Source of the DNA: Escherichia coli O157:H7
GTDB taxonomy: Bacteria > Pseudomonadota > Gammaproteobacteria > Enterobacterales > Enterobacteriaceae
DNA length: 1,538 bases
Assembly (NCBI RefSeq): GCF_013167455.1
Contig: NZ_CP038329.1
Reading direction: 5' to 3' (one strand)
Shown here: positions 1 to 1,538 of the stretch, one piece after another
How positions within the stretch are numbered: position 1 is the stretch's first letter
Layout: each line of letters opens with the position of its first letter
Notes under the pieces: generated by a model
The model's database searches: none
Seen by the model: the letters and a program-made list of their open reading frames with translations, nothing else
Told to the model about the DNA's origin: nothing
Translations under genes and position numbers: made by a program

Positions 1-1
1 A

Positions 2-457
2 CGACTGAAACAACTTTCAGATGAGGCAAAGAAAAACACCGAGGATCTCGAAGAAGCAAAGAAGAATTCAAGGTTTACACAGGTATCCCCAAAAGGTTGG
101 GAACGCGTTCGAGAGCTGCTGAAGGATAGCCAAGGCATATCAGCACTGAAGCTGTACTCATTTTTAGCGGAGCATATCGATCCTACGTGTGGCGCTGTCG
201 TTGCGGATCAGCAATTCCTAGCTGAAAAACTTGGAGTTAGCAGAAGCACAATTATTCGGTGGCTCAATTACTTAGAATCAAAAAATGCATTAGTTAGAAT
301 CCCCGTTGCTGGTAAGGTTTGTGCGTATGCCCTCGATCCACATGAAGTCTGGAAGGGATACAACACTACGAAAAACCATGCAGCGTTTGTCACTAAAACA
401 CTGGTCAACAAAGACGGTGATATTCAGCGCCGAATCATGGCCATGTTTTCAAATTGA
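2..457 (+). CDS. 3' portion (152 codons) of a putative plasmid replication protein, RepL-like winged helix-turn-helix; 5' end lies outside the window
   Basis: Frame 2 is open from position 2 to the TGA at 455-457 (translated by hand: ...SQGISALKLYSFLAEHIDPTCGAVVADQQFLAEKLGVSRSTIIRWLNYLESKNALVRIPVAGKVCAYALDPHEVWKGY...MAMFSN*). The segment LAEKLGVSRSTIIRWLNYLE is a typical HTH; the overall pattern (LKLY..FL...D...V.A...LA...GVS..TI...L..LE..N.LVR....G.....L(D/N)P(H/E)...(K/R)G) parallels staphylococcal pSN2 RepL as I remember it. It is missing from the supplied ORF track only because no start codon lies within the window. Product assignment is from memory, not a search. Confidence 0.6.
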   Translation, partial: RLKQLSDEAKKNTEDLEEAKKNSRFTQVSPKGWERVRELLKDSQGISALKLYSFLAEHIDPTCGAVVADQQFLAEKLGVSRSTIIRWLNYLESKNALVRIPVAGKVCAYALDPHEVWKGYNTTKNHAAFVTKTLVNKDGDIQRRIMAMFSN

Positions 458-589
458 GCCAGCGGCAGGCGGACAATCAGGGGCTACGTGTTAACGTTTT
501 GACCATGATTGTCTATCCTGCATTGCTCTTTTGCCGCCTCAAAATCCCTTGCGTGTTTTTGCTCCCCGATCCCCAGAACGACCGCGCCG

Positions 590-860
590 CCACGGTTCCG
601 GCTGCGCCTTGAGCGCAACCGGAAACCGTCTGGGGAGAACCCCAGACCCCCATCGCTGTAACACCGACGGTCTACGACCACCAACCAGCCGAATAGCTGC
701 CTGTGCCGTGCAAATAGGCTTTGCAGGGAGCTGACGCGGTTCCTGGCGACCTGAAAGCCCCTGGTTAGGGGTATCGGCGCGCCTGACCTCCTGAGAGCCT
801 CTGTAAGCGTTTTTCGCGCCTTCCATGCCCTGGCGGGCATTTAAACCCGTTTCGTGCGTC
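590..860 (+). other. ColE1/pMB1-type replication origin region: 3' half of an RNAII-like pre-primer and predicted RNA-to-DNA switch point near ~815-835; diverged and apparently lacking the 5' RNAII/RNAI region
   Basis: By-eye collinear similarity to the pBR322 origin region as recalled: GGGAGCT at 726-732 lies ~100 nt upstream of CCATG (826-830), as GGGAGCT lies ~115 nt upstream of CCTATGG at the pBR322 origin. On the minus strand, gaaaaacgcttacagaggctctcaggaggtcaggcg resembles caaaaatcgacgctcaagtcagaggtggcg and gataccc..ccagg resembles gataccaggcg. Order and orientation agree with the bom and pas-like blocks. No RNAI-like three-stem-loop element or terminator was seen at 260-560. Confidence 0.4.
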
Positions 861-920
861 TGAGAGCTTCTGAGCGTGTTTGAAGGGCTATCTGACGACT
901 CATCCCCGAAAGAACAACAA

Positions 921-954
921 CGGGATCACCGACAACATGCGAGAGGTGATCCCG
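921..954. repeat. Hairpin, 10-bp perfect arms cgggatcacc / ggtgatcccg with a 14-nt loop, positional counterpart of the GTTATCC...GGATAAC hairpin of pBR322
   Basis: Arms 921-930 and 945-954 are exact reverse complements. It lies immediately origin-proximal to the pas-like block, as the DnaA-box hairpin does in pBR322 (from memory). Confidence 0.5.
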
Positions 955-1010
955 CTCGCCGCAAGTCGATGACCGAGCGTAGCGAGCGAATCGACGAGGA
1001 AGCGGAAGAG
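952..1010 (-). promoter_or_regulatory. ColE1-type primosome assembly site (pas / n'-site)-like conserved block between origin and bom
   Basis: Minus strand reads ctcttccgcttcctcg tcgattcgctcgctacgctcggtcatcgacttgcggcgagcgg, against pBR322 ~2345-2403 (recalled) ctcttccgcttcctcg ctcactgactcgctgcgctcggtcgttcggctgcggcgagcgg. The first 16 nt and the terminal tgcggcgagcgg are identical. The functional label as a PriA-dependent site is from memory of ColE1 literature. Confidence 0.5.
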
Positions 1011-1046
1011 AACCGGAAGTTACATTGAGCACTTACGCACGGATGC

Positions 1047-1071
1047 GGGGTGTCGGGGTGAAGCCCTGACC
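1047..1071 (+). repeat. Inverted second copy of the 25-bp bom arm (ggggtgtcggggtgaagccctgacc)
   Basis: The reverse complement of 1265-1289 is ggggtgtcggggcgaagccctgacc, matching 1047-1071 at 24 of 25 positions. The two copies are inverted and 193 bp apart. Similarity to bom stops right after the repeat (aagtgggg here versus cagtcacg in bom). Confidence 0.75.
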
Positions 1072-1076
1072 AAGTG

Positions 1077-1114
1077 GGGAATGTCTGAGTGCGCGTGCGC
1101 GGTCAGACATTCCC
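1077..1114. repeat. Hairpin with 12-bp perfect stem (gggaatgtctga / tcagacattccc) and 14-nt alternating purine-pyrimidine loop (gtgcgcgtgcgcgg)
   Basis: Arms 1077-1088 and 1103-1114 are exact reverse complements. The loop 1089-1102 is two tandem gtgcgc units. It sits just inside the inverted bom-arm copy. Function unknown; a single-strand initiation site or relaxosome accessory site is a guess. Confidence 0.5.
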
Positions 1115-1228
1115 ACATCCTGTCCCGATTTCTGAGGCGTTTTAACGGTGAACGGACGGCAAAAACATGATCGAGCGTGGAGAGCGCGAAATCGGGCAAA
1201 ATCACGGCTGACGAGGCTTGCAGAGGAG

Positions 1229-1289
1229 TAAGCCAGTATACACTCCGCTATCGCTACGTGACTGGGTCAGGGCTTCGCCCCGACACCCC
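1229..1289 (-). other. ColE1/pMB1-family bom (oriT) including the conserved nic region
   Basis: Minus strand reads ggggtgtcggggcgaagccctgacccagtcacgtagcgatagcggagtgtatactggctta, against pBR322 bom (recalled) gggtgtcggggcgcagccatgacccagtcacgtagcgatagcggagtgtatactggctta. About 58 of 61 positions match by eye, including an identical 41-nt run tgacccagtcacgtagcgatagcggagtgtatactggctta. By analogy with ColE1, where I recall nicking mapped to CTGG/CTTA, the nick would fall on the minus strand between plus coordinates 1233 and 1232. Confidence 0.8.
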
Positions 1290-1291
1290 AA

Positions 1292-1320
1292 AAGGGCGTT
1301 GCGTTGCGCGCAACGCCCTT
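1292..1320 (-). terminator. GC-rich hairpin (aagggcgttgcg / cgcaacgccctt, 5-nt loop) abutting the bom arm; candidate intrinsic terminator for leftward transcription
   Basis: 12-bp perfect inverted repeat, 1292-1303 and 1309-1320. On the minus strand the GC stem is followed by TTTTGGGG, a short U-tract. On the plus strand no T-run follows directly, so the minus orientation is more plausible. It also coincides with the GC-rich to AT-rich junction. Confidence 0.35.
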
Positions 1321-1384
1321 GCCTAGAATAGATCTTTTACGCCGATTTGTAAGTTGTTGTTTTTTTAGTGTGTTTTTTGTTTAC

Positions 1385-1453
1385 CTGTCGCATCCAGGGT
1401 GACACAACGTTGTCGCATCCTGGATGCGACAACACGCAACAAGGTGTTGCACA
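1385..1453. promoter_or_regulatory. Operator-like cluster of palindromes upstream of the 1519 gene
   Basis: A 23-bp perfect palindrome at 1410-1432 (ttgtcgcatcc t ggatgcgacaa). A third copy of the arm in direct orientation at 1385-1398 (ctgtcgcatccagg). A 10-bp palindrome acaacgttgt at 1404-1413. A gcaac-N5-gttgc dyad at 1436-1450 overlapping a possible -35 hexamer. Confidence 0.45.
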
Positions 1454-1476
1454 GATGTGTCATGATGGCTTAGATT
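1447..1476 (+). promoter_or_regulatory. Candidate sigma70-type promoter (-35 ttgcac 1447-1452; -10 tagatt 1471-1476, 18-bp spacer) for the downstream gene
   Basis: Hexamer matches only (ttgcac vs TTGACA, tagatt vs TATAAT). An alternative -35 ttgaac at 1476-1481 lacks a good -10. Weak and unverified. Confidence 0.2.
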
Positions 1477-1518
1477 TGAACCAACGTTAGTGCATGGGAT
1501 TTTCAGAGGGAAAAAATC

Positions 1519-1538
1519 ATGTTTATTGATTCAGAAAA
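1519..1538 (+). CDS. 5' end of an unidentified protein-coding gene (MFIDSE...), continues beyond the window
   Basis: ATG at 1519-1521 preceded by a purine-rich Shine-Dalgarno-like agaggg (1505-1510) at 8-nt spacing. AT-rich upstream region with operator-like palindromes. Only 6 codons are visible, so the product cannot be assigned. Confidence 0.4.

Follow-up and report, generated by a model that had tools for sequence, protein, structure and literature searches.

Is a short stretch of Escherichia coli O157:H7 DNA in which a GC-rich segment is bordered by restriction sites the product of cloning, or a plasmid that became mosaic by natural means? The stretch comprises 1,538 nucleotides of contig NZ_CP038329.1 and is referred to here, as a whole, as the window. 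A first-pass annotation, made from the letters alone, had entertained both answers. Our analysis favours the latter: with a probability of roughly 90%, the window represents a natural cryptic E. coli plasmid in its entirety, a circle of 1538 bp that belongs to the pKL1 / "Col(MG828)" family and is built from two natural modules. The pKL1 family is already known, and the finding is an ordinary one.

Identity and natural occurrence of the plasmid

The window has the same length as the records of natural plasmids, and its rep reading frame runs across the window ends, as expected for a full circle. Overall, it is 95% identical to pKL1 (NC_002145.1), a plasmid reportedly characterised by Burian et al. 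in the 1990s. The window is covered over at least 80% of its length by 327 PLSDB records and in 290 of 5,426 complete E. coli genomes, with sources that include humans, animals or livestock, and water. Records of the same length and 99.9% identity stem from rectal swabs, blood, wounds, seawater, and Shigella stool isolates, and the host of pKL1 was the clinical E. coli strain KL4 (PMC3832669). These natural plasmids are continuous across both junctions at which an engineered construct had been suspected, which refutes that suspicion. What holds is the other option offered by the first-pass annotation, namely a coincidence in a naturally mosaic plasmid: this is a complete plasmid of the pKL1 family, and its GC-rich block is a genuine exchangeable module, also present in plasmids whose rep genes are unrelated.

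Besides, window-like sequence was present in 18 genome contigs from unrelated phyla. All of these contigs are tiny (400–7,565 bp), and three of the 18 bear coverage labels (0.88x, 0.91x, and 1.66x). A true broad host range was rejected on account of this small size and the labels of ~1x, and the contigs were read as contamination; this plasmid, with its high copy number, thus contaminates assemblies made from unrelated bacteria. Viral contigs scanned with a conserved pattern gave 0 matches.

A RepA cassette joined to an exchangeable block

The sole gene of the window is rep, and no other open reading frame has a family match. The gene and its surroundings are organised as follows:

1519–1538, plus strand: rep start codon and first seven codons; the reading frame wraps the artificial window ends because the window is the whole circle
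1–456, plus strand: rep (RepA) coding sequence, codons 8–158 and stop; GC 0.445
1336–1518, plus strand: AT-rich region corresponding to the pKL1 oriV/operator, upstream of rep; 98% identical to pKL1, GC 0.43
1292–1320: perfect 12-bp GC hairpin with which the RepA-specific cassette opens; missing from L008, L009, and L010

Translation of 1519–1538 joined to 1–456 yields a protein of 158 amino acids that is identical to pKL1 RepA throughout (158/158). It matches Pfam HTH_36 (34.8 bits; cutoff 25), and its match to RepL is sub-threshold (17.7). Inverted and direct repeats resembling RepA sites occupy 1386–1433, and the region upstream of rep has a fold z-score of -5.5. In pKL1, the oriV is reported to lie upstream of rep, where an IHF box and Rep sites are also located, as well as a perfect inverted repeat (PMC3832669, citing Burian 2003). 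The identity with pKL1 suggests that the window plasmid, too, replicates in a RepA-dependent manner and is autoregulated. A promoter scan revealed no sigma-70 promoter-like site anywhere in the window, rep included, and the two terminator-like sites of the window equal the number expected from shuffles. Matches to DnaA boxes and IHF sites in the window had one mismatch in every case, and no Xer core (a cer/dif-like multimer-resolution site) was detected in it, even when 5–8 mismatches were allowed.

Three relatives, L008, L009, and L010, carry other rep genes, and their alignments with the window are limited to ~452/456 to 1292/1294. This defines the module borders and a first element of the shared block:

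452–456: natural border of the module on its left side, at the stop codon of rep, where homology with L008, L009, and L010 starts
1292–1294: right natural module border, from the same alignments
472–513: conserved hairpin with the HpaI site (490–495) at its apex; single-stranded DNA fold z-scores of -4.8 and -3.6

As the block ~454–1293 recurs in plasmids whose rep genes are unrelated, its ends are the true natural junctions. HpaI and BglII are each 35–40 bp away from them, HpaI inside the shared module and BglII outside. In L009, the 472–513 hairpin has another loop and lacks the HpaI site, but all changes in its 10-bp stem are compensated. The same hairpin is found downstream of rep in IncX4 plasmids (IncX4 match to 471–531, 87%).

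Module 1 (~1294–1538, then 1–456) is AT-rich and consists of the RepA cassette, i.e. oriV/operator repeats followed by repA, which would replicate the plasmid and autoregulate. Module 2 (~456–1293) is GC-rich and wholly non-coding. We regard it as a portable set of cis-acting DNA signals that moves by recombination between small plasmids whose initiators are unrelated. Its parts, read from the left, are the conserved hairpin, a constrained element of ~460 bp ending in an ssiA-like site, an oriT of the IncI complex, and, in inverse orientation, an oriT of the ColE1 type.

ColE1 homology is limited to two patches

The GC-rich part had initially been described as a ColE1 segment containing the origin. 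This label is mostly wrong, as ColE1 homology comprises 952–1040 and 1229–1288 only. A ColE1-type, RNA-primed origin under RNAI/RNAII control would make this a plasmid with two replicons, and the colinearity of the ssiA-like and bom patches with ColE1 agrees with such an arrangement, as does the filing of the marker under 'Col' by PlasmidFinder and MOB-suite. However, an Rfam search of the window (E<=1) returned a chance match to mir-9461 and no RNAI, whereas the same search detected RNAI in ColE1 with 73.8 bits. In addition, local alignment of window positions 456–951 with the RNAII/ori region of ColE1 (601–1308) was no better than for shuffles (z=-0.7 and 1.4), and the pKL1 oriV is reported upstream of repA (PMC3832669). 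A second, ColE1-type replicon is thus very unlikely. What the window does share with ColE1, apart from bom, is a putative priming site:

952–1040, plus strand: ssiA-like patch (n'-pas, PriA-type primosome assembly site), aligning to ColE1 1309–1397 (z=20; 83% over the core)

With RNAI at 645–749 as the anchor, ColE1 1309–1397 lies +105 to +195 from the RNA/DNA switch, and ssiA has been reported downstream of ori (PMC3167613). The fold z-scores of the patch in the window are only -2.1 and -1.8. We infer that 952–1040 acts as an ssiA-like primosome site, where it would prime complementary-strand synthesis.

A highly conserved non-coding element upstream of rep

The ssiA-like patch forms the end of a larger element, within which two structures stand out:

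576–1040, plus strand: highly conserved non-coding element; contains the AscI site (776–783) and is what the 'Col(MG828)' typing label follows
596–624 and 628–649 (within 592–649): two adjacent GC-rich hairpins, fold z-scores of -4.1 and -5.5

The element is always located upstream of rep and co-oriented with it, and it is 79–94% identical to copies in plasmids that encode RepL, a 146-aa wHTH protein, or Rep_3 initiators. Across carriers with differing rep genes, the block has changed less than neutral DNA would. The hairpins at 592–649 are kept by compensatory changes: a T-A pair of the second stem is C-G in L017, a T..A versus A..T pair swap separates L006 and L017 from the window, and the inner hairpin is flipped in L022. 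A further hairpin, at 921–954, was dropped as a conserved structure, being weak or lost in most relatives. For the most conserved part (~576–951, including 700–830), no homolog of known function was found, and the fold z-score of 700–830 is near 0. The 576–951 element is probably functional.

Could this function be that of a small protein? Minus-strand reading frames of 95–118 amino acids are annotated as 'hypothetical protein' at the element in some PLSDB records, and the frame is still open in the diverged copies L030 and L031. Yet, the variable columns are spread evenly over the three codon positions (27/30/27; p=0.90), and single-nucleotide indels or stops break the frame in L010, L011, L017, L018, and L026. 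Neither the six open reading frames of the GC-rich segment in Pfam nor the longest of them in NCBIfam had a match, and the predicted protein is rich in Arg, Pro, and Gly, as is typical of spurious reading frames in GC-rich DNA. We therefore regard a coding role as highly improbable. The indels within 576–1040 are single bases, which, together with the lack of codon periodicity, marks the element as non-coding.

As a non-coding element, 576–1040 may rather be a portable, initiator-independent, cis-acting module than a replicon marker, and its most likely role would be that of a lagging- or complementary-strand priming origin composed of conserved hairpins and an ssiA-like site; this is a tentative proposal, to which we would give somewhat less than even odds. 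The element may have been recruited by plasmids with at least four initiators, namely pKL1 RepA, the 146-aa wHTH protein, RepL, and Rep_3 (IncX4 included). For plasmid typing, this has a practical consequence: the 'Col(MG828)' label, as used by PlasmidFinder and MOB-suite, tracks the shared non-coding module and no rep gene, so that plasmids with unrelated initiators are lumped together.

Two probable oriTs in inverse orientation

With rep as its only gene, the plasmid lacks a relaxase gene, and its mobilisation is therefore expected to occur in trans. To the right of the conserved element, module 2 contains two oriT-like regions:

1046–1131, plus strand: IncI-complex (IncK2/Z-like) oriT, 86 bp, 94% identical to an IncK2/Z sequence located 15 bp from nikA/nikB
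1047–1075, 1077–1114, and 1114–1127, plus strand: predicted parts of this oriT, i.e. left element, inverted repeat (putative NikA site), and nick region CACATCCTG/TCCCG
1229–1293, minus strand: ColE1-type oriT (bom), 98% identical to ColE1 1462–1521 and 100% to pLAO24 beside rop/mobC
1047–1075 and 1261–1289: left and right arm of a 29-nt inverted repeat (93% complementary), a leader element common to both inversely oriented oriTs

The nick of the IncI-complex oriT is predicted after CATCCTG (1122/1123, plus strand), as in the R64 and RP4 oriTs; likewise, the nic of bom is expected at CTGG/CTTA between 1233 and 1232, as in the pBR322/ColE1 bom. Among family members, the inverted repeat of the IncI-complex oriT occurs in three variants that all keep the hairpin, and the adjoining nick region is invariant. 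The variant of L006 matches the IncI-gamma/K1 sequence adjoining nikA; L018 lacks this oriT. Judged from sequence, both oriTs are probably functional, in which case the proteins acting in trans would be NikA/NikB, supplied by an I-complex plasmid in the same cell, or the Mbe proteins, supplied by a ColE1-like one.

Base composition and restriction sites

Two-arc segmentation of the circle separated an inner arc (561–1323) with a GC content of 0.60 from the remainder at 0.44. The log-likelihood ratio was 20.2, compared with a maximum of 11.2 among 200 shuffles, and the GC shift is therefore real. "Sharp compositional junctions" had been placed at ~500 and ~1320, which is apt for the right edge (1309–1344 within 2 lnL units) but not for the left, which is diffuse (425–582). 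The shift is explained by the fact that oriT and ssi sequences, which form hairpins, are GC-rich by nature, and rep cassettes AT-rich: the ssiA-bom region of ColE1 has a GC content of 0.58 versus 0.48 for the whole plasmid, the IncK oriT 0.64 versus 0.51 for its own plasmid, and rep cassettes 0.34–0.45.

A GC content of 0.58–0.60, above the E. coli average and well above that of the rep cassette, might also be taken as the mark of foreign DNA newly acquired from a high-GC organism and functionless in the plasmid. Against this, all homologs are enterobacterial plasmids, the matches in unrelated phyla being the tiny contigs, three with ~1x coverage labels, that are typical of contamination. Conservation of the block also exceeds that of neutral DNA in carriers that differ in rep, compensatory changes maintain its hairpins, and in other plasmids, too, these sequences have a higher GC content than the plasmid around them. 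Recent foreign acquisition hence has little to commend it, with a likelihood of only a few in a hundred, and an origin of the shift in the nature of the cis-acting signals themselves remains our explanation.

The restriction sites were found exactly where they had been described, i.e. GTTAAC (HpaI) at 490–495, GGCGCGCC (AscI) at 776–783, and AGATCT (BglII) at 1330–1335, and each is unique in the window. Two of them are characterised by their position:

776–783: AscI octamer GGCGCGCC, a natural polymorphism inside the conserved element
1330–1335: BglII site, inside the RepA cassette and ~37 bp outside the shared module

Two of the three, HpaI and BglII, are within ~10–70 bp of the compositional change-points. 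Their supposed coincidence with the junctions is only approximate; the homology borders are 38.5 and 39.5 bp from the centres of HpaI and BglII, respectively, a proximity not above chance. When two positions are drawn at random, both have a palindromic hexamer no more than 15 bp away with p=0.07, and no more than 40 bp away with p=0.33. Palindromic hexamers are not in excess in the window (15 versus ~24 expected), and the chance of finding at least one of 12 common 8-cutters inside the GC-rich arc is ~0.31. The AscI octamer is replaced by GGCGCGCT in pKL1, pCE10D (L005), L006, and three of the 18 genome-contig matches, the presence of the site among natural relatives varying by a single SNP. 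It had been thought to sit inside the origin at a place where pBR322 differs, which was not borne out: 741–820 of the window could not be aligned with any part of the ColE1 origin region (z=-0.1). In pE2022_5, the BglII site is duplicated through a natural 52-bp tandem duplication. We conclude that the HpaI, AscI, and BglII sites are chance palindromes and no cloning scars.

Insertion of a fragment from ColE1 into a small replicon by way of HpaI and BglII, with AscI added as a cloning site, would account for three unique sites and for the vicinity of two of them to the change-points. This scenario has virtually no chance of being true given the same sequence in wild isolates by the hundred (from humans, livestock, and water), HpaI and BglII sites likewise placed in pKL1 from clinical strain KL4, homology breakpoints (~454 and ~1293) off both sites, an AscI site that one SNP makes or breaks among natural relatives, and a window with no marker gene, polylinker, palindrome excess, or ColE1 origin. 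The value of this result is mainly a negative one: here, an abrupt change in GC content with restriction sites on either side, seen in a tiny plasmid, is no evidence of engineering, and there is no reason to flag the window as synthetic.

Comparison with known plasmids

The closest known system, pKL1 (1549 bp), has the same organisation throughout, including the conserved element, the ssiA-like patch, the ColE1-type oriT, and HpaI and BglII sites at equivalent positions. At 11 bp less than pKL1, the window is without the 8-bp CTGTTGAA present in variants of 1546–1549 bp. The two plasmids also differ in the inverted-repeat variant of the I-complex oriT (81% identity in that segment) and in the octamer at 776–783, which is GGCGCGCC in the window and GGCGCGCT in pKL1.

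With ColE1 and pBR322 (pMB1), the window has in common a homologous ssiA (n'-pas)-like sequence and bom/oriT, in the same order and orientation. Unlike these plasmids, it is devoid of RNAI, RNAII, ori, rop, and mob genes; compared with ColE1, it has the I-complex oriT inserted between the ssiA-like patch and bom, and its replication would depend on RepA, with the oriV predicted elsewhere. The oriT of IncI-complex plasmids (R64, IncK, B/O, Z) resembles that of the window in its leader element, inverted repeat, and CATCCTG-type nick region, but in the window it resides on a plasmid without nikA and nikB, and within the family three alternative inverted-repeat variants exist. If the priming-module reading of the 576–1040 element is true, the exchangeable single-strand origins of Gram-positive rolling-circle plasmids would be analogous to it.

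As for its predicted lifestyle, the window resembles pBuzz, pCERC7, and pEC156, which are likewise tiny, relaxase-less, oriT-only plasmids with oriTs acquired from conjugative plasmids, the I-complex oriT among them. pBuzz has two inversely oriented oriTs, as does the window, and is mobilised by a B/O plasmid, while pCERC7 and pEC156 combine F-like and R64-like oriTs (PMC11389934, PMC8765060, PMC4743918). The window differs from these comparators in its two oriT types (I-complex and ColE1/MOB-HEN), in that its transfer is a prediction from sequence, and in its replicon, which is based on pKL1 RepA rather than on the rolling-circle Rep of pBuzz or a ColE1 replicon. Relaxase-free plasmids of 1.5 kb that carry two differing oriTs, and among which oriT variants are swapped, fit the emerging view of oriT-only 'hitchers' that exploit several helpers.

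The plasmid and its relatives

The window is a complete circular plasmid of an already known family. A PLSDB megablast returned 99.9% identical records of just the window's own length, 1538 bp, for example pSCU-482-3 (rectal swab, healthy student) and plasmids of blood, wound, seawater and Shigella flexneri stool isolates, besides many variants of 1544-1598 bp. At least 80% of the window is covered by 327 PLSDB records, and near-full-length copies occur in 290 of 5,426 RefSeq complete E. coli genomes. An 8-bp CTGTTGAA at position 1176/1177, missing in the 1538-bp variants and present in 1546-1549-bp relatives including pJD8 and pCE10D, accounts for the length gap between the two. The sole real gene, rep, encodes an HTH_36 protein identical at 158 of 158 residues to RepA of pKL1 (NC_002145.1), the founder of the family, which has been studied by experiment. 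The oriV of pKL1 lies upstream of rep and comprises an IHF box, binding sites for Rep and a perfect inverted repeat, as summarised in PMC3832669 after Burian et al. 2003; its counterpart in the window is the AT-rich stretch 1336-1518, with repeats at 1386-1433. Some database records are opened within rep (e.g. NZ_CP053250.1, CDS 1-290), so that their only gene is called as a truncated 'helix-turn-helix domain-containing protein' or left unannotated.

Features of the window
1519-1538, then 1-456, plus strand: rep, ATG at 1519, 158 aa, wrapping the window ends
490-495: HpaI site, 38.5 bp inside the GC-rich block, at the apex of a conserved hairpin (472-513)
776-783: AscI site, a single-SNP polymorphism
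952-1040, plus strand: ssiA-like patch, matching ColE1 1309-1397 (z=20)
1046-1131: I-complex oriT between two ColE1-like patches, 94% to IncK2/Z plasmid sequence
1077-1114: inverted repeat of the I-complex oriT (fold z=-4.7), followed by CACATCCTGTCCCG
1229-1288, minus strand: ColE1-type bom/oriT, 98% to ColE1 1462-1521
1330-1335: BglII site, 39.5 bp outside the block, within the RepA cassette

The conserved element described below (~576-1040) or the whole plasmid was also seen on tiny contigs (400-7,565 bp; L020-L037) in assemblies of unrelated phyla, including Streptomyces, Mycobacterium, Flagellimonas, Streptococcus, Bradyrhizobium and Paramuribaculum, and L018 (NZ_CP090002.1) is an 'unnamed plasmid' of S. 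aureus RN6390. Three contig names give a coverage (0.88x, 0.91x and 1.66x). These copies look like contamination from a high-copy E. coli plasmid rather than true host range. In Pseudomonas sp. A-RE-19 (L029, NODE_52, 7565 bp), the entire plasmid sits at 2778-4387 within a larger ColE1-like contig, with a duplicated bom (window 1229-1292) at each end; either recombination at oriT/bom has produced a real cointegrate, or the contig is an assembly chimera over the shared 64-bp repeat.

A natural mosaic

The first-pass annotation had noted abrupt GC shifts at the HpaI and BglII sites bordering a 'ColE1' segment, with an AscI site in its 'origin', and had considered either a natural mosaic or an engineered construct. 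All three sites are where it placed them, and the GC shift is genuine: when the circle is cut into two arcs, the best split separates 561-1323 (GC 0.60) from the remainder (0.44), at an LLR of 20.2 against a shuffle maximum of 11.2. The right edge is indeed sharp (1309-1344), whereas the left one is diffuse (425-582).

The natural mosaic proved correct. The GC-rich block is common to several plasmids with unrelated rep cassettes, whose initiators are a 146-aa winged-helix protein (L008, L009), RepL-family proteins (L010, L011, L017, L018, L030, L031) or Rep_3 initiators (L026 and IncX4 plasmids). By base-level alignment, the block is limited to ~452/456 and 1292/1294, so that it begins at the rep stop codon and ends shortly past the ColE1-type oriT. 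A GC excess is seen in related DNA as well: 0.58 for ColE1 ssiA-bom against 0.48 for the whole plasmid, 0.64 for the IncK oriT against 0.51, and 0.52 for the IncX4 block against 0.42, while the alternative rep cassettes are all AT-rich (0.34-0.45). Hence, the GC junctions arise generically where hairpin-rich oriT/ssi DNA is joined to an AT-rich rep/oriV cassette.

The engineered construct, by contrast, is refuted, as natural plasmids match continuously across the junctions (the condition that the first-pass annotation had itself named), the natural junctions lie off HpaI and BglII, the AscI site is a SNP polymorphism, and pKL1 has both HpaI and BglII in the corresponding positions. At the AscI position, pKL1, pCE10D, L006 (another family member) and 3 of 18 other copies read GGCGCGCT. 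Restriction-type palindromes are not in excess in the window (15 hexamers vs ~24 expected, 6 octamers vs 6 expected); two random positions both have a palindromic hexamer nearby with p=0.07 (<=15 bp) or 0.33 (<=40 bp), and one or more of 12 common 8-cutters would occur in the GC-rich arc with a probability of ~0.31. The hairpin around HpaI (fold z=-4.8) is shared by IncX4 plasmids, and its L009 version has another loop and a fully compensated stem, without HpaI. In pE2022_5, a natural 52-bp tandem duplication (~window 1303-1354) spans a GC hairpin and BglII and thus yields two BglII sites.

Nor is the block a ColE1 origin. With a cutoff as loose as E<=1, Rfam found no RNAI in the window (the same search on ColE1 scored 73.8 bits), and 456-951 does not resemble RNAII/ori of ColE1 (z=-0.7 and 1.4); no ColE1 counterpart of the AscI neighbourhood was found (z=-0.1). 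ColE1 homology is limited to two colinear patches, 952-1040 and 1229-1288. The ColE1 match of the former is located at +105 to +195 relative to the RNA/DNA switch, taking RNAI at 645-749, and the ssiA/n'-pas primosome assembly site has been placed in that stretch downstream of the switch (PMC3167613).

A conserved non-coding element

The stretch ~576-1040 is 79-94% identical among carriers with different initiators. It is not coding, given single-base indels and variable columns spread evenly over codon positions (27/30/27, p=0.90); in five carriers the long minus-strand ORF is interrupted, and no family match was obtained for it. Two adjacent hairpins at 592-649 (z=-4.1 and -5.5) are maintained by compensatory changes, and in L022, one of the stray contigs, the inner stem-loop of the first (window 596-624) is flipped to its reverse complement, which alters the sequence and keeps the fold. 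For the conserved 700-830, including AscI, no structure is predicted (fold z close to 0). Positions 791-812 and 860-881 hold the two copies of an imperfect 22-bp direct repeat (CTGAGAGCYTCTG...GTTT; 77% identical, 69 bp apart), which IncX4 plasmids share and which could be a protein-binding site.

Wherever its surroundings were examined, the element lay upstream of rep and in the same orientation; it is 145-308 bp from the rep start in arrangements that have no oriT between the two, and the partial IncX4 copy is ~657 bp away. The 'Col(MG828)' label of MOB-suite/PlasmidFinder tracks this element and not the rep gene, and a single replicon type is given to carriers of RepL and of other initiators alike (L017, L018, L010), although the element is all that L017 and L018 share with the window. 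Our best inference is a candidate role in priming the complementary or lagging strand, as a cis-acting module that does not depend on the initiator; the ssiA-like 3' end of the element is on the plus strand, which is also the predicted transfer strand of the I-complex oriT.

Two predicted transfer origins

The window bom/oriT is 100% identical to the pLAO24 copy beside rop/mobC, and we expect its nic at CTGG/CTTA, as in pBR322 bom. The IncK2/Z sequence matching 1046-1131 lies 15 bp from nikA-nikB, the canonical position of an I-complex oriT, and CACATCCTGTCCCG is presumably the nick region, with the plus strand cut after CATCCTG as in R64/RP4-type oriTs. This oriT is absent from L018. Its inverted repeat comes in three very different versions among family members (the window, pCE10D/pKL1 and L006), all keeping the hairpin and an invariant adjoining nick region; the L006 version has its match in IncI-gamma/K1 plasmids, where it stands 14 bp from nikA. 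Such cassettes suggest that helper (NikA) specificity may have been swapped within one plasmid family. A 29-nt leader common to both oriTs (1047-1075 with 1261-1289) forms a long-range inverted repeat, 93% complementary, so that the oriTs are inversely oriented and their nick sites face each other.

No relaxase gene is encoded on the plasmid, and MOB-suite classes window-type plasmids as mobilisable, consistent with transfer by a relaxase supplied in trans. Judged from its sequence, the plasmid would live as pBuzz, pCERC7 and pEC156 are known to do, as an oriT-only plasmid that uses a relaxase in trans (PMC11389934, PMC8765060, PMC4743918).
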